Shown in pieces: positions 1,934-28,645 of a stretch of 32,000 bases of DNA. The notes under the pieces are model-generated. The model ran no database searches. It was not told where the DNA came from and saw only the letters and a list, made by a program, of their open reading frames with translations. The stretch is from Argonema antarcticum A004/B2 (GTDB taxonomy: Bacteria; Cyanobacteriota; Cyanobacteriia; Cyanobacteriales; Aerosakkonemataceae): positions 685 through 32,684 of the forward strand of contig NZ_JAIQZN010000080.1 in assembly GCF_023333585.1 (NCBI RefSeq). Reading direction: 5' to 3'. The first letter of the stretch is position 1. Every line of letters starts with the position of its first letter. Made by a program: the position numbers and the translations under genes.

Positions 1934-1934
1934 A

Positions 1935-3398: not shown

Positions 3399-5605
3399 AT
3401 ATACAAGACTGGTTATCCAAACAACAACAAATTTATCCCCAGCAACCGTTACCCGATGTAAGCCCTAATTTGTCTTGTCATCCAGTTAGCGGGGAATGGC
3501 AAGATTCGGCACATATAAAAAGTAAATTTTGGTGGGGTGGTGGCGCTTCGGAAGAGGCTTGTAACCAAATTGAGGGAGACAATTTTGACCATCTAAATCG
3601 AGTAGCGGTGCTATCATTTGGCCCAGTACAGACCTTTTTAGGTGGTGGACAAAGATTGAGAGATTGGGCGGTAGCTTCTTGGCTGTGTCACTATCTTTCA
3701 GCAGTTCTAATTTATCGCTGGGAAGAAGCAGGTGGTAAAGTTTTACTGCCTTTACATCAAAGTTCAAAATTAGTCAATTGGTTGAAAGGAAGTAATGCAG
3801 TTTCCGATCGATTTTGGCAGGCAGAATTACCAAACGTAATTACAGCATTATACCCCAATCGAGACAATTGGTTAGACCAAAGGAAAGAGGTTATTAAAAA
3901 CGAATGGAAACGTTTTCTAGAAGCTTTAGAAAAAGCTGCGATCGCTCAATATCCGCGCTTGCTTGATGGTCAAGGATGGCGCGTTATCCATTCTGATAAC
4001 CAATATCTTTGGTCAGTTTATACTGAAGAAACTGCCCTTAATATGGAAACTGTTAGCGAAGATATCGATAGTTTACATCAGCGAATTGAATCGCGAAAAA
4101 TTGGTCGAGAATGGTCGGGTACTTGGTGGGGAGGGCGTACCAGTCCCAGCGATGGTTGTCTGTCAATTTGGCATCCAGGTTTAAAATTAATTTATCAAGG
4201 TGGAATGTGGGGATTACCTGACAACCAGATCGACAGTTGGTGGGAAAGGGCTACTCAAGAAAGTAAATTACAAGGATTATTTTCTAGTACAGACCGTCTT
4301 AATAGTATCGAATTAGTTAAACGGTTAGCTTCTGTTCCCGAAATTATCGAACCAACTTTAAAAGATTTGTGGAAAAAAAATCCCCCCGAATGTCCTTGGG
4401 GTCGCTTTCCAGATCGAACTGCTGCTGCTGCTGCTTGGGTAACAACTTCTATCAAACCAGATCGATGGAATCAAGAAGTTGGAGTTTTGCATGAATACTA
4501 TCTTAACAAGAAACCAATCTATTTTTGGGGAATGCCCAAAGCAGACGAACAATCTCCTTCTTTTGCCCATCCGCGTGTATTGGAACGGCGAAATATTGAA
4601 GATGAAACGATGATTGAGGATTGGGAAAACAATGTACCGCAAGGTTGGGAAAGTACCATTGAATGGACGGTGGGATGGCGGGGTGATGGGGATAATATGG
4701 GTAAATGGTTATCAGGAGAACAATATGAAAAGCTAAGGTTGCTTTGGTCGCAATGGCATCCTAATTCTGCAATGATAACCCAACATAATTTAGGGATTAA
4801 TCCGGCGATCGATCCGGTTCAATGCAGGCAGATGGAATTACCCCATATCCTCGATCTATCGGTACTATTTGGATTGTGGAATGAACTGCTTTATCCTTTA
4901 ACAGAAGAAGTTCATCACGGGAAAGTCATTTTTGCTGGAGGTGATGATTTTCTGTTATTAGGGCCGTTAACTGAAGCGATTTCTCTTACCAGCGATTTGC
5001 ATTCGCTTTGGATGGGAGAAGCTTCGCCGTTAACACAACCTTTAGACCCGCCTGTAGATGGTTGGGTAGAGTACAATTCTCAAATTTACCCCATACCTGG
5101 AAAGAAGATGAATTTCAGTTTGGGGTTAGTAATTGCCCAGCGGAGGATTCCTCAGTCTTTGTGGCATCGAGGATTGAATCAGGCATATAAGGAAGCTAAA
5201 AATAAGGGGCGAAATCGAGTCTGTGTGAAAGTTTTGTTTAATAGCGGACAATCTTTAGATTGGATTTGTCCTTGGCCTTTGTGGAATTTGTTAATGCCTG
5301 TGGAACCGATCGCTACTAATCAAACTGAATTAAATCGCTGGGAAAAATTACTTTCTTACTTGGAAAGCAGTCGCTTGCGAGAGGTTTCTATTTTTACAGT
5401 ACGAGATTTGATTGAAACTCTGTGGGCTAGCGTGGGAATTCGTCTGACTTGGCAACAAGTTATGGATGTAGGACGCGCTGAATTTGAGGCAGAAATTAAA
5501 GATTGGCAGTGGTGGATTAATTGGATTAGTTTGAAAGCTTTTCTAGCAAGGCAAGCGCAACAACGGCAAAAGTGGGTGGAATTGATGACGGAGGGGAAAG
5601 CATGA
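3395..5605 (+). CDS. cas10: Cas10 (Cmr2) large subunit, HD domain absent, cyclase GGDD present
   Basis: 736 aa. The Palm-domain start VAVLSFGPVQTFLGGGQRLRDWAVASWLCHYLS lies about 70 aa from the N terminus. The cyclase motif is VIFAGGDDFLLLGP, with GGDD at 4937-4948. The gene is followed by cmr3-5-like genes. Confidence 0.9.
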   Translation: MNIQDWLSKQQQIYPQQPLPDVSPNLSCHPVSGEWQDSAHIKSKFWWGGGASEEACNQIEGDNFDHLNRVAVLSFGPVQTFLGGGQRLRDWAVASWLCHYLSAVLIYRWEEAGGKVLLPLHQSSKLVNWLKGSNAVSDRFWQAELPNVITALYPNRDNWLDQRKEVIKNEWKRFLEALEKAAIAQYPRLLDGQGWRVIHSDNQYLWSVYTEETALNMETVSEDIDSLHQRIESRKIGREWSGTWWGGRTSPSDGCLSIWHPGLKLIYQGGMWGLPDNQIDSWWERATQESKLQGLFSSTDRLNSIELVKRLASVPEIIEPTLKDLWKKNPPECPWGRFPDRTAAAAAWVTTSIKPDRWNQEVGVLHEYYLNKKPIYFWGMPKADEQSPSFAHPRVLERRNIEDETMIEDWENNVPQGWESTIEWTVGWRGDGDNMGKWLSGEQYEKLRLLWSQWHPNSAMITQHNLGINPAIDPVQCRQMELPHILDLSVLFGLWNELLYPLTEEVHHGKVIFAGGDDFLLLGPLTEAISLTSDLHSLWMGEASPLTQPLDPPVDGWVEYNSQIYPIPGKKMNFSLGLVIAQRRIPQSLWHRGLNQAYKEAKNKGRNRVCVKVLFNSGQSLDWICPWPLWNLLMPVEPIATNQTELNRWEKLLSYLESSRLREVSIFTVRDLIETLWASVGIRLTWQQVMDVGRAEFEAEIKDWQWWINWISLKAFLARQAQQRQKWVELMTEGKA

Positions 5606-6591
5606 GTAGATGGTATTCTATTACGCCAGCGGGAACGGTAGCGATCGGGAATCTGACTCCGGTCGGTCAAAATAGCGGACAAGTGGGCTGTCGTTGGCCA
5701 CCGAACGGTCATCATCTGGCAGCTTGTTTGAAATTACCATCAAATTGTCAAATTTGGGGGCCGTTTTGGTATAAGGGCGAAGGGAATATTTACGTTACAT
5801 TACCTCTGCCTGTTTATCGGTTGGAATCTAAAACAGAGGAACTACCCCAAGAAATTTTTCGCTTGCAATGGCGAGACGGACAATGGCAGAAACAATCGGA
5901 ACATCAAGAACAAGAAATTGAAATTATTGGCGGTAGATATTTAATTCGTGGCAATACTTTAAAGACATTTTGGCAGGCAGGAAAGTTGAAAAATCCGCAA
6001 CTGCAAAAATTTCCTTGGCAAACGCTTACTTTAAGTCACAATAGCCGGGAAGATTACCAAGTTAAAGATGAGGGAGGCTTTTTTGCGGAAATGACTACTT
6101 TAATGTCGCCTGGGTGGTCGATTTTGGTCAAGGTGATGGGAGATTGCAAGTTAGACGAGTGGGGTTTTTTGGGCGCAGGAGGTACGCCAGTTGCGATCGC
6201 GCCCGTAGAAATAAAGGAGGATTGGTTAACGGCAGATTGTCCCAACCCTACTGGTGCGGTTTTACTCACCGGGGCGTTGTGGCAACAGGGGTCATCCGGC
6301 ACACTCAGCAGCAAAGTATCTTGTCCCGTTCCACCATTGCCGATTAAAGCTTATGCTGCCGATACAGGCGTTCCCTGGCAATCTTGGAAAAAGGTCAAAC
6401 ACCGTGATGAAAAAGACAACCCCAATGCTGAAAAACGGGTAGAAGTTTTTACACCGGGAGAATGGATGACTCCCGCAGGCGCGGTGTATCTGTGGGAGGG
6501 AACTGCACCTTTGTTAAAATCCGAACCTTTGCCGGATGCTTACCATCGTCATGTTTTAGGTTACGGACATTTATGGTTATTTCAGGAGTGA
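5602..6591 (+). CDS. cmr3: Cmr3-like (Cas5-family) subunit
   Basis: The ATG at 5602 overlaps the cas10 stop (ATGA). The track's 5572 start is a GTG inside cas10. Size (~330 aa) and position fit Cmr3, and there are glycine-rich segments (FLGAGGTPVAIAP). No decisive motif was recognised. Confidence 0.55.
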   Translation: MSRWYSITPAGTVAIGNLTPVGQNSGQVGCRWPPNGHHLAACLKLPSNCQIWGPFWYKGEGNIYVTLPLPVYRLESKTEELPQEIFRLQWRDGQWQKQSEHQEQEIEIIGGRYLIRGNTLKTFWQAGKLKNPQLQKFPWQTLTLSHNSREDYQVKDEGGFFAEMTTLMSPGWSILVKVMGDCKLDEWGFLGAGGTPVAIAPVEIKEDWLTADCPNPTGAVLLTGALWQQGSSGTLSSKVSCPVPPLPIKAYAADTGVPWQSWKKVKHRDEKDNPNAEKRVEVFTPGEWMTPAGAVYLWEGTAPLLKSEPLPDAYHRHVLGYGHLWLFQE

Positions 6592-6596
6592 ATTAA

Positions 6597-7370
6597 ATGG
6601 CTATTGAATGGTTAATTTGTCGAGAACCTGTACATATTGGGGGTGCTGATAGTAGCAGTCGCGGTAATAATAATCCCATATTTCGATTGCCCGATCGCAG
6701 TCCGGCGATTCCTGGTAGTTCGTTGCGAGGGGCATTGCGAGAACACGCTAAAAGTGATGCTAACTATCAACCATTAGTAAAAAATTGGTTTGGTGGTGAG
6801 AATAATGATATTTCTCCGGGCAATATTTCTTTAGGTTGGGGTTGGCCTGTGTGGTGGCCTGTTCATGTGTTGGGATATGGTAATTGGTGGGTGAGTTGTC
6901 CCAGTTGGTTAAATCGATTTTGCCAATTATCTCAACGATCACCTTTGAACCTTGCTACAGATAAAGTTCATATTACGGAACCACAACTTCGTAATAAAAC
7001 GGTTTATTTGCGGTGGTTAAAGTTGACAAATGTACAGTATTATGCAAACGAATTGCCAGCGCCAGCGGAAGTACCAAAAGATAGGCGAATAGTGGTACCG
7101 GATACTAGCATTAATTTAATTGTGGATATGGGTTTGGTACGACAACCGCGAGTTAGTTTGAAAGATGAAGCGGATGAAAAAGGAAATTTAGTCAACAATT
7201 TATTTGCCGTTGAAGGTTTTCCACCAGGTTCGGTTTTTCTGCTCACTTGGACGACGCGGGAAAAAGTGGAAGAGTTAAACAAGTGGAATGATTTTTTAAT
7301 GGGAGAACATTATCTTGGGGGCTTGTGGAGTGTGGGTTATGGACGGGTGTTTATTTCTCATATTGTATAG
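6597..7370 (+). CDS. cmr4: Cmr4-like Cas7 backbone RAMP
   Basis: 257 aa. The RAMP signature is RGNNNPIFRLPDRSPAIPGSSLRGALREH. A Trp-rich segment (GWGWPVWWPVHVLGYGNWWVSCPSWLNRF) sits in the usual Cmr4 position, and the C terminus is glycine-rich (LGGLWSVGYGRV). Confidence 0.8.
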   Translation: MAIEWLICREPVHIGGADSSSRGNNNPIFRLPDRSPAIPGSSLRGALREHAKSDANYQPLVKNWFGGENNDISPGNISLGWGWPVWWPVHVLGYGNWWVSCPSWLNRFCQLSQRSPLNLATDKVHITEPQLRNKTVYLRWLKLTNVQYYANELPAPAEVPKDRRIVVPDTSINLIVDMGLVRQPRVSLKDEADEKGNLVNNLFAVEGFPPGSVFLLTWTTREKVEELNKWNDFLMGEHYLGGLWSVGYGRVFISHIV

Positions 7371-7383
7371 TTAGGAGTGGATT

Positions 7384-7821
7384 ATGAATCCCGTGAGTTC
7401 TTATGAGTTAGATAGAGAAGTTTTCCAACTGCTGAATCCTGGAGAAGGACAATTAGATAATTGGCAGGGGGCGGCAAGTGGCATTGCTGATTATGTAGCT
7501 AGTTGGGGTGTGGAACGCTTTTGGGCGATGTCGCGATCGCGAGTGTTATTAGGTGGCGAAATGCCCAATGCTGCAACGGGTTCCGATGAGGAAAAGCGTT
7601 ATTTTGCTTGGGGTGTAGCGCGGGTAGTTTTGTGCAAAATTGTCGGTACTGATTTGCGGATTGAAAAAACAATGACAACTGAAGCGTTTCAGAATCGCTT
7701 TCGAGAATTGGATTTTAATCAGCAGGTTTTGTTGACTGATTTGTTGATGGAAATTTCGGATACGATTCAGTTTTGGACAATGCGATTGAAGGATGCTAAG
7801 AAGTGTAATACGCAGGTTTGA
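7384..7821 (+). CDS. cmr5: Cmr5-like small subunit (Cas11)
   Basis: 145-aa ORF directly after cmr4 and the last gene of the operon. The call rests on size and position; no motif was seen. Confidence 0.5.
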   Translation: MNPVSSYELDREVFQLLNPGEGQLDNWQGAASGIADYVASWGVERFWAMSRSRVLLGGEMPNAATGSDEEKRYFAWGVARVVLCKIVGTDLRIEKTMTTEAFQNRFRELDFNQQVLLTDLLMEISDTIQFWTMRLKDAKKCNTQV

Positions 7822-7946: not shown

Positions 7947-8598
7947 GTTTTCACACCTTTTCCTTCTAATGAAGGTCGCTACTTTTTTATAATACCTTAT
8001 CCAACAATGGTTTTGTAAAGCTTCAACACCTTTACCTTCTAATGAAGGTCGCTACCTGATTCTATTACGGTGATTGCCAGCGCTACCACTTGTTTCAACA
8101 CCTTTACCTTCTAATGAAGGTCGCTACGTCTGGGATTTGTTACCGCCCAGCAAAGCGGCAATCAAATAGCGATGGTTTCAACACCTTTACCTTCTAATGA
8201 AGGTCGCTACCGCCCTAAAAGCATTAGGGCTAGGGGAGCGCCTGATAGTGGTTTCAACACCTTTACCTTCTAATGAAGGTCGCTACGTGACCGGCGCGAC
8301 CGGTTTTGTCGGCTCGGCGGTGGCGCGGGTGGTTTCAACACCTTTACCTTCTAATGAAGGTCGCTACTCGATCGCTAGCCCCTTGCATTTAGAGCTAGAG
8401 CAGTTGCCTCAGCTTTGTTTCAACACCTTTACCTTCTAATGAAGGTCGCTACCACCACTACAGCAGCAGCAGCAAAAACGGGACAAGACAGTTTCAACAC
8501 CTTTACCTTCTAATGAAGGTCGCTACGCCATCATGAAGGTGGGGATTTCTGCAAGTTCGCGCGTTTCAACACCTTTACCTTCTAATGAAGGTCGCTAC
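7947..8598 (-). CRISPR. CRISPR array 1: 9 repeats of 36 bp, 8 spacers of 36-49 bp
   Basis: Repeats start at 7947, 8020, 8092, 8175, 8251, 8332, 8417, 8491 and 8563. The + strand consensus is GTTTCAACACCTTTACCTTCTAATGAAGGTCGCTAC. The transcribed (minus) form is GTAGCGACCTTCATTAGAAGGTAAAGGTGTTGAAAC, which ends in the type III-like tag GTTGAAAC. The two lowest-coordinate repeats are degenerate (3 mismatches and 1 mismatch), marking the trailer. The conserved leader lies on the high-coordinate side. Confidence 0.97.
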
Positions 8599-8805
8599 CT
8601 ACCCCTATTCAACCCCTTATCCTGCCTGATTTCCAGCGGCAGTTTGCGAGGGATACCAATTTTCTTACCACAAACCTCCTTACTTGCACATCTTTAAACG
8701 TCTAAAACCCTTGCCCAGTAAGGCAGCGAGGCTCACAACGAAGTTGCGTTGTTTCAGCGATTTTTCATCACCCTCGCAATTTTAGGGAATTGGGGATAGC
8801 TGGGA
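8599..8805 (-). promoter_or_regulatory. Leader of array 1
   Basis: It flanks the non-degenerate end of the array. Its blocks are collinear with the array 2 leader: AAACCCTTGCCCAG (8705-8718), GTTTCAGCGAT (8751-8761), and the inverted pair TTGCGAGGG (8644-8652) / CCCTCGCAA (8771-8779). Confidence 0.7.
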
Positions 8806-8841
8806 GCGATCGCACTTTACTACACTACTAAGTGCGATCGC
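8806..8841. other. HIP1-based hairpin just downstream of the cmr6-like stop
   Basis: GCGATCGCAC (8806-8815) and GTGCGATCGC (8832-8841) form a perfect 10-bp inverted repeat with a 16-nt loop. The same design recurs at 27888-27921 and 29747-29784. Confidence 0.6.
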
Positions 8842-8849
8842 CTGATTCT

Positions 8850-10364
8850 TCAACATTGCCATACAACCTGGAAACCTTTACTTGTCAGCGTCGCTTCCAC
8901 AGCTTGATCAAATACAGTAATCAAACAATAATTCTCATATTGTCGCACCGCATAACCAGATGGTCGAGTCTCAGAATTTCCACACCATTGGGGGCGATTT
9001 GTGGCTGTGGTACTGCAAACTTTATGCACGATATCTCGCCATTTATCTCCTTTTCCCTGCCAAATACTAATCAGAGAACCAGAAACTATTGCTGGCTTTG
9101 ACATCGCACGCCAACCATAATTTTCACCTAATTTTGCGATTAGTTCCCGCAAACGCTTAATTAACTCATTCAAAGGTTCTTCCAAATTAACTGGCGTAAC
9201 AGTAAATTCACTACCCCGAAAACCATAAAAACGTTCTAAAACGTGGGGTGGTCTGCGCCAACCTGGGCCAAGTCCACCAAGGCGACTAGCTAAAGCAAGC
9301 AATCCACCAATTAAAGGTTTAAATTCTTCATTGCAATCAACACTAATTATCCAAGTTGCGTGTGCTTGACGAGCCGGAATATTAGTATAATCATTGGAAG
9401 TTTGACCGAGCATTCTGGGAATAGATTGCAAATAGCTAGTTAAAGTTAATTTAGCCGGACAACCCAAACCTCCAAATATTTTATCAGTCAGTTTTAAGGC
9501 AGTTTCCTGCGAAAACAAAGATAATGCCAATCTGGTAAAGTAACCGCGTAAATTAGCCCGCAATACTTGAGGCGTCCAGCGGTATTGTCCGGTTTGATTT
9601 TCCCCTGGTTTGTGACTTTGGACGCAAGGTTTCATTCCGGTGAGTTGAATCTCCCAATTTCCTGAAGGAATAAAGGGCGCTAATCGACCAAAACCCGATG
9701 CTTTTCCCCGTCCGATTCCTTGGAATTGCAGCATTTCTTTTAAGCGTGTTTCCAGCCAAGTTTTTTGTTCTTTGCTAGAAGTATCTTTCAGTAAAACTTG
9801 CAAGCAGAATTTATCGAAATTCGGACTGGGAGGTTTAGGAGATACTTGCCATTGAATGCCTAAATTCTTACTTTTTTCGTCAAATAACTGCCATTTTTGT
9901 TGAGCGTTTAATGGATAAGGTTTGAGGTTTTTTAGTAGAATGGTTTCAAAGCGAATTTTGCGGGGTAGCCAGTGAGTGCGATCGCTTGCCAGCAAACTTT
10001 GCCAAAAAGCTTGTTCTTCACTCGGTAAATCATTCCATTTTCCCTGAATCCAACTTAGCAAAGCGCCCCTAATGCTAGAACCGGGAATGCAGGGAACACC
10101 GCCAATTTGGGCGGGTAAAATACCTCCTTCTGGAAAACTACCCCCACCAACTTGAATCGGACTAATAATTTGCAATTTGTCCAAACGTACCGTGTAAGCA
10201 TCAGCATTTTTGGGCGAATAACTTCCTTTTGTATCCCAAGCATCAATAATTATGGCAGAATCTTCTTTACCTTCAATAATATCCTCAGTTTTCGGTGTCC
10301 AGCCTCTTTCTTTTGTCTCTTCAACTGTGTACCATTGGGGCATTTCTTCAGGTAATAGCGCCAT
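8850..10364 (-). CDS. Two-RAMP-domain protein: Cmr6-like N-terminal half, Cmr1-like C-terminal half
   Basis: 504 aa. The first RAMP has GGVPCIPGSSIRGALLSW and the glycine loop QGIGRGKASGFGRL. The second RAMP has LRANLRGYFTRLAL, IFGGLGCPAKLTL and LGGLGPGWRRP. No separate cmr1 or cmr6 occurs elsewhere in the window. Confidence 0.6.
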   Translation of the reverse strand: MALLPEEMPQWYTVEETKERGWTPKTEDIIEGKEDSAIIIDAWDTKGSYSPKNADAYTVRLDKLQIISPIQVGGGSFPEGGILPAQIGGVPCIPGSSIRGALLSWIQGKWNDLPSEEQAFWQSLLASDRTHWLPRKIRFETILLKNLKPYPLNAQQKWQLFDEKSKNLGIQWQVSPKPPSPNFDKFCLQVLLKDTSSKEQKTWLETRLKEMLQFQGIGRGKASGFGRLAPFIPSGNWEIQLTGMKPCVQSHKPGENQTGQYRWTPQVLRANLRGYFTRLALSLFSQETALKLTDKIFGGLGCPAKLTLTSYLQSIPRMLGQTSNDYTNIPARQAHATWIISVDCNEEFKPLIGGLLALASRLGGLGPGWRRPPHVLERFYGFRGSEFTVTPVNLEEPLNELIKRLRELIAKLGENYGWRAMSKPAIVSGSLISIWQGKGDKWRDIVHKVCSTTATNRPQWCGNSETRPSGYAVRQYENYCLITVFDQAVEATLTSKGFQVVWQC

Positions 10365-10437
10365 GATTTTTTCCTTCCTGCTAACTTAAATATTGAATAG
10401 TGTTTCTTTCAACCTCATTTAGATTTCTCCAACAAGA

Positions 10438-10474
10438 AATCTGAGGACTTAGAACTATTCTAAATCCTCAGATT
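10438..10474. promoter_or_regulatory. Long near-perfect palindrome upstream of the cmr6-like gene
   Basis: AATCTGAGGA (10438-10447) pairs with TCCTCAGATT (10465-10474). An inner pair TTAGAA/TTCTAA surrounds a 3-nt loop. It lies about 75 bp upstream of the start at 10364. It could be an operator or a 5'-UTR structure. Confidence 0.4.
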
Positions 10475-10475
10475 C

Positions 10476-10530
10476 AAAAAAAGCGGATATTTTAACTAAA
10501 GTTTTCTTTCTTTAAGAAAGGTTTATCCGC
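10476..10530 (-). terminator. Intrinsic terminator (minus strand) downstream of the solitary repeat
   Basis: Outer stem GCGGATA (10483-10489) pairs with TATCCGC (10524-10530). It encloses an inner hairpin CTTTCT/AGAAAG (10506-10520). On the minus strand it is followed by T7 (A7 at 10476-10482 on the + strand). Confidence 0.6.
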
Positions 10531-10560
10531 TAGGTAATCGCGCACTTTCGAGAGACGACT

Positions 10561-10594
10561 GTTTCAACACCTTTTCCCTATCTAAAGGGTCTTC
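10561..10594 (-). repeat. Solitary CRISPR-repeat-like element (third repeat variant)
   Basis: The + strand reads GTTTCAACACCTTTTCCCTATCTAAAGGGTCTTC. The first 16 nt are identical to the array 2 repeat, and it has its own small stem (CCCT..AGGG) at the position of the array hairpins. No second repeat lies nearby. Confidence 0.75.
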
Positions 10595-10671
10595 TTTACT
10601 TTAATAGGAGAAAGCCTGGAAAATAAGGTCATAATGGCATTGACATTTGTTCGCTTCAGTGATATATACAC

Positions 10672-10968
10672 TTAATCAAGCGGACAAAGTAACCTCCAAA
10701 GCGGTGTGGGAATGTCCTCAAAATGTTCTAGCAGAAAGTCCATAATTGCCAGATGGCGCAAATCGTTAGGATGGGGATTTCTGCCTAAATCTCCTTGTTT
10801 AAACCACCCGCGCACGGTAGACTCGGAACGAGAACAAATTAAAGCTATTTGTTCGTAAGTTACTGCCCATTTATTGTAAAATTGTCTGGGTGTCATCCCT
10901 AATTGGCAATGGCTGTACAATTGAATCAAAGTTAATTCTCGTTCCTGTAAAATTCGAGGTTTATTCAT
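10672..10968 (-). CDS. Small helix-turn-helix protein
   Basis: 98 aa with an HTH-like segment VTYEQIALICSRSESTVRGWF. It sits inside the cas block, downstream of a toxin-like ORF. Confidence 0.5.
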   Translation of the reverse strand: MNKPRILQERELTLIQLYSHCQLGMTPRQFYNKWAVTYEQIALICSRSESTVRGWFKQGDLGRNPHPNDLRHLAIMDFLLEHFEDIPTPLWRLLCPLD

Positions 10969-11121
10969 ATTTTTCGATAGGTAATTGATGGAATTTATCT
11001 GTCATCTTCCAACCAATGACTAATGACTATAGGACTTACGCAAAGCCCCTATCTGTAGGGTGCGTTAGCGCTAGCGTAACGCACCATCTACCATATTTAG
11101 TGTAGCTGCGTAACTCCTGGA

Positions 11122-11391
11122 CTAATGACTATCAATAGCCATCACCCAAATGGTTTTACCCTCTTTGTATTTCCAGTAAAAACGCAAAGCCATCGAAGCA
11201 GAAGAACCCCAAATTTCGCCTTTTTTCTGTTTATATCGATGAGTCCTCAAACTTCTGTAATTTGGCCCTTCTGCTGCTAAAAGTTGGAAAGCTTTATGGT
11301 ATTGTTTTTGCGTTTTTACTGAAAATACCGCCAATTGCTTTTTTACTTTGGGAGTGACAATCACCTCAAATTGGATGGCTTGATAGTCCAT
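11122..11391 (-). CDS. RelE/HigB-like toxin-fold protein (putative)
   Basis: 89 aa. The C-terminal pattern SLRTHRYKQKKGEIWGSSASMALRFYWKYKEGKTIWVMAIDSH resembles the RelE/ParE/HigB consensus: L-x-x-H-x-L-K-G, W-S, R-(I/F)-x-(F/Y), and a terminal H. Confidence 0.4.
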   Translation of the reverse strand: MDYQAIQFEVIVTPKVKKQLAVFSVKTQKQYHKAFQLLAAEGPNYRSLRTHRYKQKKGEIWGSSASMALRFYWKYKEGKTIWVMAIDSH

Positions 11392-11407
11392 GAGATTTGA
11401 TTTTTAG

Positions 11408-11447
11408 GTACGTTGTTGCGTTTTAGCGCTAAAGCGCAACAACGTAC
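11408..11447. other. 40-nt near-perfect palindrome between cas2 and the toxin-like ORF
   Basis: GTACGTTGTTGCGTTTTAGCGCTAAAGCGCAACAACGTAC has one T/G position. A T-run follows on the + strand. A related palindrome with an AGCGCT core lies at 11060-11084. Confidence 0.6.
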
Positions 11448-11460
11448 TTTTAATTAATGA

Positions 11461-11739
11461 CTAAACGATGAAAGCCGCATCATCTACTGCAAAGTCTGGC
11501 TTTATTCCTAAGACCGCTACTTTGCAACGACAGGGGTCGGATAGGGGATAAAATCTGAGTTGGTCTTCTTTGGAATTGAGTATTTTGAACAACCGTTTTT
11601 GAATGTTCTCGTACTGCTTTTCATCCAGTACCGCCTCGAATACCGACTTCTGCACTCGCAATCCGTAAGTTTCTAATAATTTAGAAACTTTATAGCGGCG
11701 ACTATCATCTACGATGTCATAGCAAATGAGGTAAAACAT
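11461..11739 (-). CDS. cas2: Cas2
   Basis: The sequence MFYLICYDIVDDSRRYKVSKLLETYGLRVQKSVFE.. is typical of the Cas2 ferredoxin fold. The ATG at 11739-11737 overlaps the cas1 stop (TAATG). The longer track ORF to 11880 runs inside cas1. Confidence 0.9.
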   Translation of the reverse strand: MFYLICYDIVDDSRRYKVSKLLETYGLRVQKSVFEAVLDEKQYENIQKRLFKILNSKEDQLRFYPLSDPCRCKVAVLGIKPDFAVDDAAFIV

Positions 11740-12803
11740 TACACTTTTACCAGTATTCGCTGTTCTGTTGGCTGATTGCTGACAGGAGAGATAGCAGTAT
11801 CGGTATCCCATTTCAGCAGCATGGGGCGGTAGAATTCTACATCGCCTAACAAGTAAGCAATGTATTCTTGTACTTGCCATGCTAAACAGCGACGGTAGCT
11901 GAGTTTTCCTGCATATAAATGAGTCACTTCAGTTTGCAGCTTTTCTTCCCAATGCTTGATAAACTTTTTCAACGTAGCAGGATATAGAGATATTGCGTCC
12001 TGTTGGGAAGGTCGGGTAAAATCGTCAGGTGTCAGAATTTGCGAAATTGCCAAATTTGCCACTAATTCGTCTACCAAGAAAGGACGAAATTCGACGGCGA
12101 AATCTTCAATCAAAGATAGTTCATCTTGGCAATAAAAATGCAGGTTGCCGAAGTTGGGATTGAGTCCGGCTGATTGTACAAATCCGTAAATGGTATGATT
12201 TAGCAGGGCATTACCCAGGCGTAACACGCTGTTAATGGAGTGGGAGTGAGGGCGACAAGTACACTGGAAGTTGAAAGCTTTTGCGAGTAACTCGGTGATG
12301 GCTTGATAGTACAAAGAAGCGGCTGTAGTTGAGTATTCCCGCAGTGCGTGGATAGAATCTGCCATCGGCAAATCATCGATTAAAAGGTCTAGCATTTCCA
12401 TCGCTATTTCTGCTTTGGGAGTGGAATGATTTGCACTCAAGCGCAACAGAACGATGCCACAGTTATGCAGGTAAGCGCGGACGATGCTTTCAGCTATGGT
12501 TTTGGGAAAGTTGGGGTTTTGGGCGCGTTTGATTTGCTGGGGAAAGTATTTGGCAGGATGTAGCGATTCTAGTTGTAAGCGTCCTAAATAGTTTCCTTGG
12601 TTGTCGAGGAATAGGACGGGAATTGCCAGAGATTGAGCTAAAGATGCGGCGTTCGGTTGTAAGTGGCAATTACCGAATAGAGTAATTTTGCTTACTTGGG
12701 AAGAATGCACTTGCAGGCACAGTTTGTTTTGGTGGAATACTTGGAAGTAATGATGTTTTACTTTTAAGCAAGTGCCTGGTTCGGTCATGTAGATTGCTGT
12801 CAT
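11739..12803 (-). CDS. cas1: Cas1 without RT, a paralogue of the Cas1 domain of the RT-Cas1 fusion
   Basis: 354 aa. Along its length it parallels RT-Cas1 residues 332-665, for example MTAIYMTEPGTCLKV vs MTTLYVTDQGAYLSI, FGNLH in both, and FIKHWEEKLQTEVTH vs FLKHWEEKLQSELTH. Acidic and His active-site positions are retained (REYS, GNLH, IEDFAVEFR). Confidence 0.9.
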   Translation of the reverse strand: MTAIYMTEPGTCLKVKHHYFQVFHQNKLCLQVHSSQVSKITLFGNCHLQPNAASLAQSLAIPVLFLDNQGNYLGRLQLESLHPAKYFPQQIKRAQNPNFPKTIAESIVRAYLHNCGIVLLRLSANHSTPKAEIAMEMLDLLIDDLPMADSIHALREYSTTAASLYYQAITELLAKAFNFQCTCRPHSHSINSVLRLGNALLNHTIYGFVQSAGLNPNFGNLHFYCQDELSLIEDFAVEFRPFLVDELVANLAISQILTPDDFTRPSQQDAISLYPATLKKFIKHWEEKLQTEVTHLYAGKLSYRRCLAWQVQEYIAYLLGDVEFYRPMLLKWDTDTAISPVSNQPTEQRILVKV

Positions 12804-12842
12804 AATTTGCTTTTAAACTCTACATTCCTATCTTCTCAACCG

Positions 12843-12900
12843 GGTATTTGAGTTGGTATTTGAGTACGCATATTAGTATATGAGTTGGTATATGAGTTGG
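12843..12900 (-). promoter_or_regulatory. 2+2 set of 12-bp direct repeats upstream of cas1
   Basis: Units are GGTATTTGAGTT (12843), GGTATTTGAGTA (12855), a 9-bp gap, GTATATGAGTT (12876) and GGTATATGAGTT (12887). A candidate -10 (TAGAGT on the minus strand, 12817-12822) lies about 20 bp downstream. The block is paralogous to 16386-16444. Confidence 0.6.
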
Positions 12901-12978
12901 CGATTTGGTCAAAAATGGTTTTTTAGTTTTTATTTTGTAGGTAGAGAAAGAGAATCGCTTTTACTCCGCAACATTAAA

Positions 12979-13206
12979 TATAGCTAGTGACTAGGGAAGA
13001 GGAAAAAGGGTTAAGGAGTAAGAGATGGAAAGACCAAAGGTAAGAGTTGGAGTTGTCCTAATCGCCAAGGTGGTTGCTATAGCTAGGGACTAGGGGCTTT
13101 CTTGCTAGGGGCGAGCGTTGAGGGAGAGGGAAGAGGTTACTCCGTAAGGGATTATGGACTTCATGTAACAGTTGGAGTTGGCTTAATCGCCCTGGCGGTT
13201 GCTATA
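12979..13206. repeat. Degenerate tandem duplication (units of ~99 and ~125 bp)
   Basis: TATAGCTAG(T/G)GACTAGGG occurs at 12979 and 13078. AGTTGGAGTTG.C.TAATCGCC..GG.GGTTGCTATA occurs at 13045-13082 and 13169-13206, matching at 33 of 38 positions. Confidence 0.7.
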
Positions 13207-13213
13207 TATTACA

Positions 13214-13244
13214 GTCCCCAGGATAAGCAGATTATCCTGGGGAC
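13214..13244 (-). terminator. Strong hairpin at the trailer end of array 2
   Basis: GTCCCCAGGATAA (13214-13226) pairs with TTATCCTGGGGAC (13232-13244), a perfect 13-bp stem with a 5-nt loop. It lies 6 nt beyond the last repeat in the transcription direction. There is no clear U-tract. Confidence 0.5.
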
Positions 13245-13250
13245 AATTGG

Positions 13251-14102
13251 GTTTCAACACCTTTTCTCTTCAGTAAGAGTCAATCGTGAGTACAAATGGT
13301 ACATGGACGATAGCCCTTGGGTAGAGGTTTCAACACCTTTTCTCTTCAGTAAGAGTCAATCCAGCATTTGCTGGTAACGACCCGTATGAAAAACTGATGG
13401 GTTTCAACACCTTTTCTCTTCAGTAAGAGTCAATCTCTTTTTAACAGACCAAAAAGTTGGTGGAGCTTTATAAAGTTTCAACACCTTTTCTCTTCAGTAA
13501 GAGTCAATCATGGAGACACTGTAATTTGCGCAGGTTCCGCGGACGAACAGTTTCAACACCTTTTCTCTTCAGTAAGAGTCAATCTTTGCAATGGTAATTT
13601 CTATGATTGCCAGTGGAACAGTTTCAACACCTTTTCTCTTCAGTAAGAGTCAATCAAGAGCTACCAGGGTGGGCGGTAACCGTCTGCCCTGAAAGTTTCA
13701 ACACCTTTTCTCTTCAGTAAGAGTCAATCCGGGAGCAAATCCAGGAGCGGCGGCAACAGCAAAACAATCGCGTTTCAACACCTTTTCTCTTCAGTAAGAG
13801 TCAATCCAGCAATAGGGTTGGTCGGCACTGGTGTCGCTTGGGGAATGTTTCAACACCTTTTCTCTTCAGTAAGAGTCAATCAATCTTGATAAAATTGAGA
13901 AAAAAGCAGAGGAAGCAAGTTTCAACACCTTTTCTCTTCAGTAAGAGTCAATCTTGTCTGGTTTTGATAGTCTTAGCTGGGCCCGCCGGCCTAGTTTCAA
14001 CACCTTTTCTCTTCAGTAAGAGTCAATCAGTGGCAAACCGACTCGACGCACGAGTCAGAAGCAGCTTGTTTCAACACCTTTTCTCTTCAGTAAGAGTCAA
14101 TC
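13251..14102 (-). CRISPR. CRISPR array 2: 12 repeats of 35 bp, 11 spacers of 36-42 bp
   Basis: Repeats start at 13251, 13327, 13401, 13475, 13550, 13621, 13695, 13772, 13847, 13919, 13994 and 14068, and all are identical. The + strand reads GTTTCAACACCTTTTCTCTTCAGTAAGAGTCAATC. The transcribed form is GATTGACTCTTACTGAAGAGAAAAGGTGTTGAAAC. Confidence 0.97.
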
Positions 14103-14340
14103 CCTTAGCTTCTAGAAGCCAAGCGTTGAGCTAATTCTACACCGCCAGATCTGAGGGGGTCAAGTTGGACGATCGAAAACGAGACAATTCTTCTCAATAA
14201 CCCAGAATAACACCCACCTTAAACCCTTACCCAGAGAGCTATCCGAGGGGGTCAACGAAAGAATGAGGGTTTCAGCGATCGACTGACCCTCTCAGATGCT
14301 TATTATTAGGACGAATATTGATAAGCTTTGCTAATCAAGT
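14103..14340 (-). promoter_or_regulatory. Leader of array 2
   Basis: It lies between the RT-cas1 stop and the first repeat. Conserved blocks are AAACCCTTACCCAG (14221-14234), GTTTCAGCGAT (14269-14279), and the inverted pair ATCTGAGGGGGTC (14149-14161) / GACCCTCTCAGAT (14285-14297). Confidence 0.7.
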
Positions 14341-16338
14341 TCACAGAGTCCAAATCATCGGACGGTAAGTATCAACTTCCCCCATCAAACAAGCAACATA
14401 TTCCCGCACCTGCAACTCCAAACAGCGGCGAAAACTGACTTTGTATCCAGTATGCGGGTGCGTCAATTCCGACTGCAATTTTTCTTCCCAATGCTTCAAA
14501 AACTTTTTTAGCGCATGAGGTTGCAGAAACACGCCACCACGTTCATCTGGCAACGTAAAATCCTCCGATGTGAAAATTTTAGAATTAACCAAATAAGACA
14601 CCAAAGAATCTACCAACTGCGCCCGAAACTCTTCCATCAAATCCGAAACCAATGCCGGATGATTATCGCGAGGAACGTGCAAATTACCGAAATGAGTATG
14701 CAGTCCAATCAATTCGATAAAAGAGCAAACATTTTGACTCAGCAGCGTATATCCCAAACTCATCAAACTGTTAATTGGGTCGGTAGGAGGGCGCTTTGTT
14801 CGCTTTTCAAATGCAAAAGTTCCAGTAAACAGAGAACCCAATGCTTGAAAATACAAAGTGGCTGCTTTTCCTTCATATCCCCGTAACGCATCCATCGATT
14901 CAGCATCAGGTAATTTCTCCATCAATTCAGCAATTGATTCCAGGGATTGCAAGGCAATTTTGCTGGGACGACGACGATTTAATTTGAGCAATAAAGCGCG
15001 GGAATTATGTAATTTAGCCCAAACAATGGCTTCTGCTTGCCGTCGCGTGAATTCAGGATTTAGAGAACATTCAACCTGCCGTGCCAAGTATTCCACCTTC
15101 GCGTGTCCGTCCGTTTGCAAACGCCCGAAATAGCGGCCTTTCTGGGAAAGATACATGACCGGAATTCGCCGCCGCAAAGCACAAGATACCGCTCCGTGCG
15201 ATAAATTGCAACAACCGAATAAGACAATATGGCTGACCCGATTGGCTGGCACTTTAATCCGCAACTCCCGCTGATAGAAAACTTCAAATTGCTGGTTATG
15301 AATGCTCAAGTAAGCACCTTGGTCAGTTACGTACAAAGTAGTCATGGGTTCCTTCCAAAAATGTTCGGTATTGGCAATGGGAAAGTTAATAGGTTTGAGT
15401 AAGCTACAAGCTTTGGGAGGTTGGGAAAAAACGGGAGTTTTTCGAGCTTTTTGTTGATAAGGCATCCCGGAATCCCGGAGTGCGAGTCCTCCTAGTTGAG
15501 GAGGTGGCGGCGGAATTAATTCTCCTTTAGAAAAGCGATAACCTAGAAAAGTAAACTCTTCATCGGGAGTGAAAATATGGGTTTTTCCCGGTTGAAGCTT
15601 CAGATAGATATCGCCCAACCATTGGTTAATTTGTGACAAAGCGCGATTAGCTTGTATCCAATCGCCAGATGCAATGACAAAATCATCGCCATAGCGCACC
15701 AAATTAAATCCCTTACTCAAACAAAATCGATCGAATTCGGTGAGGTACAAGTTAGCTAAAGCACCGGAAAGAATGGCACCTTGCAATACTCCCTGACCGA
15801 AATTTCGGCGAACAGCACCAATTACGATGTCGGATTTTAGTTGCTGTTCGATTAATTGCAGTAAAATAGGTTCTAGCTGCAATTGCTCTAAGTCGGTTAG
15901 CAGTAACGCCCAGCAGAGGTTGTCGAAAAATTTCTCAATATCTGCCTTGACAATCCAAGTGGGTTGGAACTGATAATAGGAATACAGATGTTTGACTGCC
16001 ATCTGAATTCCCCGACCGGGACGGTAAGCGTAGCTGCAATCGAGAAATCGTTCTTCAAGGGGGAAGTAAAGTTCGTTCAGCAGCAGGCGAGAGACAATTC
16101 TATCCCGCACTGTCTGAATGCCAACCAACCGCTTACCACCACTCGATTTGGATAGATAAAATCCTTTGGCGGGACTAACCGTGTAGGTTTCGTTTTGCAG
16201 TCGATGGTGTAAAATTTGTAACTGCTGACGAGCAATTGGGGCAAATAAATCGGTGGTAATACCATCAATACCAGCACTTTTACTTCCCTTGCGAACTTGT
16301 TCCCAAGCAATCTGGAGAAGTTCTGGGGTTAATTCCAT
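14341..16338 (-). CDS. Reverse transcriptase-Cas1 fusion
   Basis: 665 aa. The N-terminal half has group II intron-like RT motifs: YAYRPGRG, KADIEKFFDNL, GVLQGAILSGALANLYL, the YxDD box RYGDDFVI (Tyr codon at 15693-15691), LKLQPGKTHI and FTFLGYRF. A proline linker PPPPPQ follows. The Cas1 domain starts at residue 332 (ATG at 15345). There is no N-terminal Cas6-like domain. Confidence 0.93.
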   Translation of the reverse strand: MELTPELLQIAWEQVRKGSKSAGIDGITTDLFAPIARQQLQILHHRLQNETYTVSPAKGFYLSKSSGGKRLVGIQTVRDRIVSRLLLNELYFPLEERFLDCSYAYRPGRGIQMAVKHLYSYYQFQPTWIVKADIEKFFDNLCWALLLTDLEQLQLEPILLQLIEQQLKSDIVIGAVRRNFGQGVLQGAILSGALANLYLTEFDRFCLSKGFNLVRYGDDFVIASGDWIQANRALSQINQWLGDIYLKLQPGKTHIFTPDEEFTFLGYRFSKGELIPPPPPQLGGLALRDSGMPYQQKARKTPVFSQPPKACSLLKPINFPIANTEHFWKEPMTTLYVTDQGAYLSIHNQQFEVFYQRELRIKVPANRVSHIVLFGCCNLSHGAVSCALRRRIPVMYLSQKGRYFGRLQTDGHAKVEYLARQVECSLNPEFTRRQAEAIVWAKLHNSRALLLKLNRRRPSKIALQSLESIAELMEKLPDAESMDALRGYEGKAATLYFQALGSLFTGTFAFEKRTKRPPTDPINSLMSLGYTLLSQNVCSFIELIGLHTHFGNLHVPRDNHPALVSDLMEEFRAQLVDSLVSYLVNSKIFTSEDFTLPDERGGVFLQPHALKKFLKHWEEKLQSELTHPHTGYKVSFRRCLELQVREYVACLMGEVDTYRPMIWTL

Positions 16339-16385: not shown

Positions 16386-16444
16386 GGTATATGAGTTCGT
16401 GTATGAGTATTTGACTTATGTATATGAGTTGGTGTATGACTTGG
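16386..16444. promoter_or_regulatory. 2+2 set of 12-bp direct repeats in the RT-cas1 / HTH-NACHT divergent intergenic region
   Basis: Units are GGTATATGAGTT (16386), CGTGTATGAGTA (16398), a 10-bp gap, GTATATGAGTT (16420) and GGTGTATGACTT (16431). A candidate -10 TAGAGT (minus strand, 16360-16365) and an AGGAGG Shine-Dalgarno sequence precede the ATG at 16338. Confidence 0.6.
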
Positions 16445-16463
16445 ATAGAGTTTTGAAGAATTG

Positions 16464-28640: not shown

Positions 28641-28645
28641 TCTAA

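Follow-up and report, generated by a model that had tools for sequence, protein, structure and literature searches.

The CRISPR locus analysed here is, by its gene content, a type III-B immune locus without a cas6 gene and a specific relative of the subtype III-Bv system of Synechocystis. Maturation of its pre-crRNA by host ribonucleases is the best explanation, to which we give about an even chance, because the loci of this lineage are without detectable cas6 and because the locus is akin to III-Bv, where RNase E matures the crRNA. To our knowledge, III-Bv is the only type III-B system in which RNase E has been shown to do so.

Gene content and search for Cas6

The window, a stretch of 32,000 nucleotides, is nearly the whole of a contig of Argonema antarcticum, a filamentous cyanobacterium. 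The effector module would be formed by Cas10, Cmr3, Cmr4, Cmr5 and one fused Cmr1/Cmr6-type double RAMP, with Csx1 and CorA as candidate signalling effectors and with adaptation presumably by RT-Cas1 and Cas1-Cas2 (Table 1). The 736-aa Cas10 has no N-terminal HD region, matches the PADLOC Cas10b model over its full length (1179 bits) and has an intact cyclase motif, GGDD, which is invariant across 23 homologues. Cmr3 has no match in Pfam and is 26% identical to Synechocystis Cmr3. Almost every related locus that extends far enough has the Csx1 gene directly 5' of cas10, and the CorA-like homologues in loci L018, L025, L033 and L037 are ~780-860 aa long and in the equivalent position. Locus L033 also has, in the equivalent position, a homologue 88% identical to the small HTH protein. 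The 89-aa ORF has no family match in Pfam, NCBIfam or PADLOC.

Table 1. Features of the locus, in coordinates of the window
Feature	Position	Strand	Basis or remark
CorA-like membrane protein, accessory effector	2..1933	+	PADLOC CorA models, E 1e-27; truncated at left edge of window
Csx1-type CARF-HEPN accessory protein	1935..3398	+	PADLOC CARF_HEPN/Csx1, E 8e-16
Cas10/Cmr2, short form	3395..5605	+	Pfam Cmr2_N and palm2; PADLOC Cas10b PDLC02053
Cmr3 (Cas5-group), divergent	5572..6591	+	PADLOC Cmr3, E 2e-11
Cmr4 (Cas7 backbone subunit)	6597..7370	+	Pfam RAMPs, E 2e-23; NCBIfam Cmr4; PADLOC Cmr4
Cmr5 (small subunit)	7384..7821	+	PADLOC 'Cmr5gr11', E 1e-69
CRISPR array 1	7947..8598	-	9 repeats of 36 nt, GTAGCGACCTTCATTAGAAGGTAAAGGTGTTGAAAC; trailer end at 7947
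Predicted leader of array 1	8599..8849	-	motifs in common with leader 2 and leaders of related loci
Large double-RAMP subunit, Cmr1/Cmr6-type fusion, 504 aa	8850..10364	-	PADLOC Cmr6, E 4e-18
Guide-like stretch (~30 nt), possible degenerate second repeat and two hairpins	10436..10560	-	fold z -3.96
Second long hairpin	10436-10475	-	
Hairpin GCGGATA...TATCCGC + T7	10476-10530	-	kept in locus L033
Possible degenerate second repeat	~10490-10532	-	alignment to repeats z ~2-4 above shuffles
Third repeat variant, 'solitary' unit	10561..10594	-	GAAGACCCTTTAGATAGGGAAAAGGTGTTGAAAC: invariant GA, 4-bp stem, common tail
Small HTH protein, 98 aa, linked to third repeat variant	10672..10968	-	weak Pfam HTH_23 match
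89-aa ORF, no assigned function	11122..11391	-	79% identical homologue in locus L033
Cas2	11461..11880	-	Pfam CRISPR_Cas2, E 2e-23
Cas1 (stand-alone)	11739..12803	-	Pfam Cas_Cas1, E 4e-55
CRISPR array 2	13251..14102	-	12 identical repeats of 35 nt, GATTGACTCTTACTGAAGAGAAAAGGTGTTGAAAC
Predicted leader of array 2	14103..14340	-	promoter-like TTGACC-18-TAGAAT at 14163-14134
RT-Cas1 fusion without Cas6 domain	14341..16338	-	Pfam RVT_1 residues 64-269, Cas1 335-619; NCBIfam cas1, E 1e-96

The preliminary description had seen no Cas6 among the ORFs and no Cas6 domain in RT-Cas1, and both observations hold. Pfam, NCBIfam and PADLOC detect no Cas6 among the window ORFs, and RT-Cas1 has only 63 residues N-terminal to its RT domain, too few to hold a Cas6 domain. 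The module Csx1-Cas10-Cmr3-Cmr4-Cmr5-large RAMP is common to 34 related loci, and no Cas6 was detectable in these loci and their flanks (~650 kb in all), loci with full adaptation modules included, whether by clustering of neighbours, by Pfam on 20 candidate neighbours, by PADLOC on 133 unlabelled ORFs or by phmmer with Synechocystis Cas6-1 and Cas6-2a. An HMM built from 120 cyanobacterial Cas6 sequences, which found two positive controls at 4e-49 and 3e-156, reached E 0.33 at best on any locus ORF.

The large RAMP is the sole large unassigned RAMP protein in the window and was rejected as a Cas6 candidate. The top Foldseek matches of its AF2 model (pLDDT 80) are Cas7-2x (8s9u_D), Cmr1 (4l6u/4w8x), Cas7-11 and Csm3, with a probability of only 0.25-0.54 for Cas6 chains; it is predicted to be a Cmr1/Cas7-type double RAMP.

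Repeats and their orientation

The three repeat variants, described earlier as sharing a stem-loop and a 14-nt tail, match that description exactly: their 5' parts and stems differ with pairing kept, and their final 14 nt, AAAGGTGTTGAAAC, are identical. This invariance is a property within the genome; across the clade, positions -7, -8, -9, -13 and -15 vary. Each variant folds into the hairpin proposed before, but since single-sequence energies are weak (z -2.1, -0.15 and -0.9), the real support for the predicted stem is covariation across related loci. Among 28 distinct repeats from these loci, five of the six stem pairs have compensatory changes (in 35 cells), the covariation score is reached by none of 500 shuffles, and the register is 83% paired as against 35-56% in slid registers. 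The nucleotides flanking the stem, G-32, A-31, A-14 and G-11, are invariant across genera.

The minus-strand orientation of the arrays is confirmed, with transcription predicted from conserved leaders. Of the two flanks, the one next to GTAGCG is kept between loci, with 63 inter-locus similar pairs versus 12 on the opposite side; the degenerate repeats of array 1 (copies at 7947 and 8020) lie at the end away from the leader; the most promoter-like site in the region falls within leader 2, on the minus strand; and in loci whose cmr genes all lie on a single strand, the arrays read ...GAAAC in the direction of these genes. All of this stands against a plus-strand reading, GTTTCAACACCTTT-hairpin-(G)TCGCTAC, to which we give next to no credence. 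Such a reading would give the canonical Cas6 geometry, a hairpin abutting a 7-8-nt tag, and would resemble Synechocystis CRISPR2 (GTTCAACACCC...hairpin-ACTGAAAC) in this geometry and in the 5' end, but one effector in one genome would then face three tags (CGCUAC, UCAAUC and UCUUC).

The 'solitary' unit probably represents a mini-array with a single spacer and a putative degenerate second repeat ~30 nt downstream, which aligns only z ~2-4 above shuffles. The third repeat variant is kept with one substitution in the Floridaenema locus L033 (18415-18452), where the hairpin GCGGATA...TATCCGC is kept and the guide-like part is only ~60% conserved. As a stand-alone unit within a cas locus, it resembles CreR-type mini-arrays and crRNA-like regulatory RNAs (bioRxiv 10.1101/2023.03.10.532045) and repeat-like elements (PMC10120712), and its layout is also similar, with a variant repeat, one guide-like stretch and then a degenerate repeat or terminator. 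Type III mini-arrays have been judged decayed, positional conservation and targets not having been found (PMC10120712). In contrast, the unit here is kept in position and sequence in another genus; as with those mini-arrays, no target was found for it.

Kinship with subtype III-Bv

The defining features of subtype III-Bv are a Cmr1-Cmr6 fusion and the absence of Cas6 (PMC6546367). The comparison with the cas6-less Synechocystis system that was drawn in the preliminary description is borne out by gene order, the single large RAMP and profile scores. In both systems, each with a cyanobacterial host, cas6 is absent, a single large fused Cmr1/Cmr6-type RAMP replaces Cmr1 and Cmr6, the gene order is cas10-cmr3-cmr4-small subunit-large RAMP, and in the repeat a stem-loop precedes a long single-stranded tail with GAAAC at its end. 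Homology to the III-Bv proteins (Synechocystis/Nostoc) is detectable along most of Cas10 and of the large RAMP: with the clade Cas10 profile, III-Bv Cas10 scores 102-127 bits and no solved canonical Cmr2 exceeds 31 bits, and with the clade large-RAMP profile, the III-Bv fusion scores 58 bits (E 4e-15) and solved Cmr6 no more than 21 bits.

Protein identities with III-Bv are, however, only 23-26%, and the two systems differ in several respects. Cas10 here is ~240 aa shorter and without the N-terminal region, the alignment of the clade profile to III-Bv Cas10 beginning at ~residue 213, and Cmr3 is missed by Pfam Cas_Cmr3, on which III-Bv Cmr3 scores E 8e-100. The accessories are Csx1 and CorA, csx18 being absent, and adaptation is assigned to RT-Cas1 and Cas1-Cas2. 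The hairpin starts at nt 8 instead of nt 2 and has a loop of 4-6 nt instead of 7 nt, and the tail is 14-15 nt and A/G-rich instead of 18 nt and AU-rich. The Arthrospira platensis 'III-B-RT' locus is likewise a cyanobacterial type III-B locus with an RT-Cas1 without Cas6 domain (branch 5) and a separate Cas1 (Silas et al. 2017, PMC5513706); the likeness is one of gene arrangement, and PMC5513706 does not treat crRNA maturation.

Tail, handle and cut site

For CRISPR3 of Synechocystis sp. PCC 6803, a III-Bv system, RNase E/RNase J-dependent crRNA maturation was described by Behler et al. 2018, as related in PMC12464536, PMC6546367 and PMC10989914. Its repeat has a hairpin at nt 2-18 and an 18-nt single-stranded AU-rich tail, in which RNase E cleaves at a distance of 4-5 nt from the stem, on its 3' side (PMC12464536). 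The geometry of the repeats here had been taken to fit host-RNase maturation with a 14-nt handle. The host RNase stands as the best explanation, but the 14-nt handle and the matching geometry are not supported: the tail, which is A/G-rich and reads AAAGG, is only 14-15 nt long; a 14-nt handle would need the cut to fall right at the base of the stem; within the clade, positions -9 to -7 and -13 are variable; and the hairpin-to-end geometry is unlike that of III-Bv. The signature described for cyanobacterial RNase E, A at -3 and U at +2 (PMC8682795), is matched on these repeats only for a handle of 10 nt, and since it fails on the validated Synechocystis substrate, it predicts nothing here. Handles of 8 to ~15 nt would be compatible with the sequence, 14 nt being one option only.

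Positions -9 to -7 vary between genomes and are uniform in all arrays and mini-arrays of one genome, which points to one shared reader per genome. What the tail identity among one genome's arrays shows is a putative shared reader, not a cut site. Cas6-dependent arrays (Synechocystis CRISPR1/2; Anabaena Alr1482/Alr1566, bioRxiv 10.1101/2020.04.14.041012) have a similar 3' end, (C/U)UGAAAC, and hairpin-containing repeats of 35-37 nt. In Cas6-processed Synechocystis repeats the hairpin directly abuts the 8-nt tag, whereas here it lies 14-15 nt from the end, 6-7 conserved nt, (A/U)AAAGG(U/A), intervene, and no cas6 is linked.

Discussion

Host-RNase maturation is favoured by the failure to detect Cas6 in the 34 related loci or in the window, whose sole unexplained RAMP is a predicted Cmr1/Cas7-type double RAMP, by the specific kinship with III-Bv and its identical gene order, by the covarying stem, by the displaced hairpin, unlike that of Cas6-dependent Synechocystis repeats, and by tail positions -9 to -7, which follow the genome. 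Against it stand the A/G-rich tail (AAAGGUG), the validated RNase E substrate being AU-rich, and the shorter distance from stem to repeat end. In addition, the invariant bases flanking the stem suggest a sequence-specific protein over a low-specificity RNase, and the final 7-8 nt (G/A-C/U-UGAAAC) are similar to ACUGAAAC, the canonical tag that Cas6 generates in cyanobacterial I-D and III-D systems, the last 8 nt in locus L016 being exactly this tag.

These last two features would also suit a Cas6 supplied in trans by another CRISPR-Cas locus of the genome (I-D, III-D or III-A), cutting 8 nt from the repeat end to leave a canonical G(U/C)UGAAAC tag. This rival remains live, though we consider it unlikely. 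Several CRISPR-Cas systems are usual in cyanobacteria; Anabaena 7120 has two Cas6 enzymes, which show cross-recognition and act on remote and orphan arrays (bioRxiv 10.1101/2020.04.14.041012); and Arthrospira, with an equivalent RT-Cas1 and Cas1 arrangement, also carries III-A and III-D (PMC5513706). Yet the related III-Bv works independently of two Cas6 in the same cell (PMC6546367, PMC12464536), and the hairpin is set apart from the 8-nt tag, unlike that of the Synechocystis Cas6 substrates. No cas6 lies nearby in any of the 35 loci, even those with full adaptation modules, and conservation within the tail is lowest at positions -8 and -7, beside the would-be cut. Self-processing, in which a Cmr subunit (the fused double RAMP, Cmr4 or Cmr3) would cleave the pre-crRNA, has precedents in Cas5d of type I-C and in the Cas7.1 domain of the type III-E Cas7-11, which leaves a long repeat-derived tag. 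Among the matches of the large-RAMP model are Cas7-2x and Cas7-11, the array adjoins the large-RAMP gene in most loci, usually in shared orientation, and the sequence-specific conservation near the stem and AAAGG and the genome-tracking tail variation would fit a locus-encoded reader co-evolving with the repeat. We nevertheless regard self-processing as improbable: the Foldseek matches reflect a likeness general among RAMP proteins (TM 0.3-0.5), no catalytic site was identified, and the homologous III-Bv complex does not self-process and needs RNase E (PMC12464536).

For maturation by the host, the reading that we prefer, we argue that the pre-crRNA would most likely be cut by housekeeping ribonucleases, with RNase E as the prime candidate by analogy with III-Bv and with RNase J and 3' trimming possibly involved. 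The covarying 5-bp stem-loop would guide the enzyme, which would cleave the single-stranded tail beyond it. The tail A-N-A-G-G-N-N-N-U-G-A-A-A-C, common to the arrays of one genome, would then be read as the 5' handle by a shared Cmr complex.

Gene content of the locus and its kinship with subtype III-Bv

The genes of the window, mapped by profile searches with Pfam, NCBIfam and PADLOC, form a type III-B module. Cmr3, Cmr4, Cmr5 and Cmr6 were all matched by the three collections taken together, and Cas10 carries the palm domains and an invariant GGDD motif. A genome scan returned 34 related loci, in all of which the module Csx1-Cas10-Cmr3-Cmr4-Cmr5-large RAMP recurs, CorA and the adaptation genes (Cas1-Cas2 or RT-Cas1) being optional; neither the window nor these loci hold a separate Cmr1 gene, which together with a linked cas6 marks the canonical III-B architecture. 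Carriers include Scytonema, Lyngbya, Planktothrix, Laspinema, Coleofasciculus and others, with RT-Cas1 frequent. Individual carriers are Scytonema sp. HK-05, Lyngbya sp. PCC 8106, Planktothrix paucivesiculata PCC 9631, Oxynema aestuarii and the MAG CAVUSO01. Almost all of the 95 cluster representatives close to the window Cas10 are cyanobacterial, and the lineage counts 95 or more Cas10 clusters (90% identity). A plasmid search with the repeat matched Synechocystis sp. B12 only, and nothing relevant was found for the repeat strings in the literature.

Features of the Argonema antarcticum window, with strand and assignment
Feature	Position	Strand	Assignment and remarks
CorA-like protein	2-1933	+	truncated at window edge
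Csx1	1935-3398	+	CARF-HEPN
Cas10/Cmr2	3395-5605	+	Pfam Cmr2_N and palm2; PADLOC Cas10b, 1179 bits
Cmr3	5572-6591	+	
Cmr4	6597-7370	+	
Cmr5	7384-7821	+	
Array 1	7947-8598	-	
Leader 1	8599-8849	-	
Large RAMP protein	8850-10364	-	504 aa
Single repeat-like unit	10561-10594	-	
HTH protein	10672-10968	-	98 aa
ORF	11122-11391	-	89 aa
Cas2	11461-11880	-	
Cas1	11739-12803	-	stand-alone
Stretch common to both Cas1 genes	11920-11988; 14459-14527		3' coding ends; 69 bp, 75% identity
Array 2	13251-14102	-	
Leader 2	14103-14340	-	
RT-Cas1	14341-16338	-	
1157-aa protein	16461-19934		N-terminal HTH and STAND/AAA NTPase domain; divergent from RT-Cas1
2276-aa ORF	20956-27786		345-bp tandem repeats and further internal repeats
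Uma2-family endonuclease gene and IS630-type transposase	28059-29649		transposase broken into overlapping HTH and DDE ORFs, two in all
Second repeat-rich ORF	29988-32000		continues past right window end

The large RAMP protein was the sole candidate for a hidden Cas6. Its AlphaFold model, built from 35 homologues (pLDDT 80, pTM 0.81), found its best Foldseek matches in Cas7-2x, the double-Cas7 subunit of the Synechocystis III-Dv complex, in Cmr1 of A. fulgidus and P. furiosus, in Cas7-11 and in Csm3, while Cas6 chains reached a probability of only 0.25-0.54 and a TM of ~0.24. In agreement with Foldseek, its sequence profile matches Cmr6 and Cas7-2x. On these grounds the candidate was rejected as a Cas6, and the predicted fold and the profile identify the protein as a fused Cmr1/Cmr6-type subunit, so that a single RAMP protein replaces two genes. 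The large RAMP gene lies opposite to the cas10-cmr5 strand in 17 loci and on the same strand in 14, about half; where it is inverted, as in the window (8850-10364 with array 1), the array is inverted jointly with it, and the two behave as if they formed a module that can invert or is transcribed on its own.

Subtype III-Bv is a form of III-B in which Cmr1 and Cmr6 are fused and Cas6 is lacking (PMC6546367). On pSYSA and on a Nostoc PCC 7524 plasmid, its loci read cas10 (~980 aa)-cmr3-cmr4-131-aa protein-large RAMP (~640 aa), with csx18-cas1-cas2 nearby. Pairwise identity between the window proteins and III-Bv is just 23-26%. When clade profiles were compared at equal database size, the Cas10 profile scored 102-127 bits on III-Bv over profile positions 54-641, but at best 31 bits on solved canonical proteins, and there on the GGDD stretch only; likewise, the large-RAMP profile scored 58 bits on the III-Bv fusion (E 4e-15, positions 54-429) and at best 21 bits, with Cmr6, on the canonical ones. 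As the scores are far higher on III-Bv, these profiles identify the window system as specifically, if distantly, related to III-Bv, and no Cas6 homologue is associated with either. The two systems nevertheless differ in several respects. Pfam misses the window Cmr3 but matches that of III-Bv at E 8e-100; Csx1 and CorA stand in place of the III-Bv accessories; and adaptation relies on RT-Cas1 and Cas1-Cas2 rather than on csx18-cas1-cas2, no match to Csx18 being found in the window. The window Cas10 (~736 aa) also lacks the N-terminal 150-210 residues, its first residue aligning with about residue 150-210 of the III-Bv protein. The HD-nuclease region thus appears to be missing from the Cas10 of the lineage while GGDD is invariant, which suggests that immunity in this lineage may act through signalling only. 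Two distinct signalling effectors, a CorA-like membrane protein and a CARF-HEPN Csx1, are encoded 5' of cas10 (2-3398); almost every related locus has Csx1, whereas roughly one in four has CorA.

Some further features of these loci were recorded. Besides its stand-alone Cas1 gene, the window has a Cas1 fused to RT; the two genes share a short stretch at their 3' coding ends, and the same two-integrase arrangement occurs in the III-B-RT locus of Arthrospira (PMC5513706). The module of one related locus (L014) is likewise flanked by a 1157-aa ORF. Both repeat-rich ORFs of the window are probably surface or secreted proteins with no relation to the CRISPR locus. Arrays or cas operons are interrupted by transposase or TnpB insertions in several related loci, namely L003 (15727-17013), L019 (12524-13615) and L033, from Floridaenema (16442-18232), in agreement with reports that arrays of filamentous cyanobacteria are fragmented. 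In the plasmid copy of Synechocystis sp. B12 (L002, CP101711.1, 13578-21060) every cas gene is broken into several ORFs, probably by assembly indels rather than decay, and the repeat tail is GTTGTGAC, not GTTGAAAC.

Search for Cas6

The preliminary description had seen no Cas6-like ORF in the window and no Cas6 domain in RT-Cas1. Both points are confirmed: Pfam, NCBIfam and PADLOC gave no Cas6 match among the window ORFs, and just 63 residues precede the RT domain. The window takes up nearly all of its 32,686-bp contig. The conserved neighbour families of the 34 related loci contain no Cas6, ten more array-adjacent ORFs of Cas6-like size in these loci are unrelated proteins, and PADLOC on 133 unlabelled neighbour ORFs gave no Cas6 among the best 25 of 72 families. 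Phmmer searches of the related loci with Synechocystis Cas6-1 and Cas6-2a reached at best E 0.024. To back up the PADLOC search, a local HMM was built on 120 cyanobacterial Cas6 sequences; it recovered both Synechocystis enzymes as positive controls (E 4e-49 and 3e-156) and gave E 0.33 or worse for all ORFs of at least 70 aa in the related loci and the window. A concatenated Cas6-1 and Cas6-2a query had 732 matches; the 120 listed are all of the Cas6-2a type, and neither Argonema nor the 7.63-Mb relative is among them.

Arrays, repeat hairpin and tail

The arrays are transcribed from the minus strand. That they are read on the plus strand is hardly credible, even though the plus-strand repeat, GTTTCAACACCTTT-hairpin-TCGCTAC, looks like a canonical Cas6 substrate close to that of Synechocystis CRISPR2. 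Flank conservation between loci is found on the GTAGCG side (63 inter-locus similar pairs, compared with 12 on the opposite side), degenerate repeats lie at the 7947 end, and leader 2 has the best promoter-like site of the region, TTGACC-18-TAGAAT, on its minus strand; the plus-strand reading was rejected on these three observations. Moreover, in related loci with all cmr genes on one strand the arrays follow in the ...GAAAC orientation. The two leaders have the motifs CGCTGAAAC, which resembles the 3' end of the repeat, and CTGGG(C/T)AAGGGTTT in common.

The window contains three repeat variants whose last 14 nt are identical, exactly as first described. Each also folds into the hairpin proposed for it, but, taken one at a time, two of the three fold no better than shuffled sequences. 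From the lineage we recovered 28 distinct repeats, built as (G/C)U-N-N-(C/U)-G-A, a 5-bp stem, a 4-6-nt loop and a tail, (A/U)-A-(A/U/C)-A-G-G-N-N-N-U-G-A-A-A-C, that is single-stranded in the folds. Compensatory changes occur in 5 of 6 stem pairs (35 cells), a covariation score reached by none of 500 shuffles, and stem pairing is 83%, falling to 35-56% once the partner is slid. The repeat stem is real.

Counted back from the 3' end, the invariant positions are G-32 and A-31, directly 5' of the stem, and A-14, G-11, U-6, G-5, A-2 and C-1; within the tail, conservation is lowest at -7, -9, -8, -13 and -15. Since the tail varies across the clade, the 14-nt identity is a within-genome feature. 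Positions -9 to -7 are uniform among the variants inside each genome with at least two of them (the window and the related loci L007, L008, L016, L018, L025, L033, L036 and L040) and differ between genomes (UGU, UGC, AAC, AGU, UUC). Such uniformity points to one shared reader of the tail per genome, suggestively rather than strongly because a single informative U/C switch sets the window apart from the other two-family genomes. The most economical candidate for this reader would be the Cmr complex, taking the tail as 5' handle. A second, 35-nt repeat family (GTTTGA-CTCTT...), resembling array 2 of the window, forms an array directly upstream of the large-RAMP gene, the position of the window's single unit, in L007 (17261-17722), L008 (17324-18145) and L028 (16449-17132); in these loci, therefore, two repeat families have a single tail in common.

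How the crRNAs may be matured

The locus is a Cas6-less, III-Bv-related type III-B system whose arrays lie on the minus strand, whose repeat hairpin covaries and whose tail is uniform within a genome. The first description had read this geometry as fitting maturation by a host RNase with a 14-nt handle; the Cas6-less, III-Bv-like character of the locus is well supported, but RNase E and the 14-nt handle are not established. In III-Bv, the RNase E cuts fall 13 and 14 nt before the repeat end, 4-5 nt past the stem (PMC12464536). The III-Bv repeat has its hairpin at nt 2-18 and an AU-rich tail of 18 nt, whereas the lineage tail is shorter, A/G-rich and starts AAAGG. In the lineage repeat, a cut at the stem base would leave a handle of 14 nt, a cut 4-5 nt past the stem one of 9-10 nt, and the canonical cut one of 8 nt. 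The cyanobacterial RNase E signature, A(-3) with U(+2) (PMC8682795), agrees with a 10-nt handle for 18 of the 28 variants but with neither validated site of the Synechocystis III-Bv repeat, and was rejected as a guide to the cut site for missing those sites. An alternative hairpin (ACCUU with AAGGU), whose base would lie 8 nt from the end, was also rejected, since it exists in array 1 only and is absent from array 2 and the single unit. If AAAGG were part of an extended handle, its conservation would be explained; the likeness of the clade and III-Bv 14-nt tails at 9 of 14 positions (AA..G..U.GAAAC) is a hint in that direction.

We give an even chance to the view that host ribonucleases, with RNase E as the foremost candidate, cut the pre-crRNA under guidance of the hairpin, and that the crRNA keeps the common tail as its 5' handle. 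It is conceivable, though on balance unlikely, that a Cas6 is supplied in trans: Cas6 cross-talk has been reported in Anabaena (bioRxiv 10.1101/2020.04.14.041012) and the last 8 nt of the repeats look canonical. In the two Cas6-dependent Synechocystis systems, CRISPR1 and CRISPR2, however, the hairpin abuts the 8-nt tag ACUGAAAC, whereas 14-15 nt separate hairpin and 3' end in the window lineage; neither such a repeat nor a cas6 is found in the locus. Self-processing by a Cmr subunit we regard as quite improbable.

The single unit and mini-arrays

The single unit (10436-10594, minus strand) consists of the variant repeat followed by ~30 nt of guide-like sequence, whose best target match, 22/40 in both the window and the Floridaenema locus, is at chance level. 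A possible degenerate repeat 3' of the guide-like stretch aligns weakly (z ~2-4) and sits inside a terminator-like hairpin, GCGGATA...TATCCGC, followed by seven T and then by a second long hairpin (fold z -3.96). In Floridaenema evergladense (L033, 18233-18452) a single unit occupies the matching place, just downstream of the HTH gene, with one substitution in the repeat-like unit, a well conserved hairpin and ~60% conservation in the guide-like part. Type III mini-arrays have been viewed as decayed remnants (PMC10120712); unlike those, the single unit is conserved in position and sequence, with the small HTH gene beside it in both genomes. Two other related loci (L040, 8206-8320; L036, 6860-6977) also have one-spacer mini-arrays, in which a stem variant of their own is combined with the tail of their genome; these lie a few hundred bases 5' of the main-array leader or beside a WYL regulator gene.

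A broader reading, which we consider doubtful, is that of a widespread III-B lineage that has given up Cas6 entirely, with an extended, bipartite 5' handle, AAAGG-NNN-UGAAAC, a non-Cas nuclease acting at the hairpin base, and regulatory mini-arrays. The same machinery would then serve conserved one-guide mini-arrays with their own terminators, yielding crRNA-like regulatory RNAs, a role so far denied to type III systems.

Implications

If host ribonucleases do mature the crRNAs of this lineage, the 28 covarying repeats would amount to a natural mutagenesis series for separating nuclease from Cmr recognition. In practice, the choice of nuclease would decide whether these RT-linked systems can be rebuilt in another host for RNA recording. 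To our knowledge, Synechocystis III-Bv is the single experimental case of Cas6-independent crRNA maturation in type III systems. Should this much larger sister lineage also use host RNases, maturation by host enzymes would be regular in cyanobacterial type III-B.
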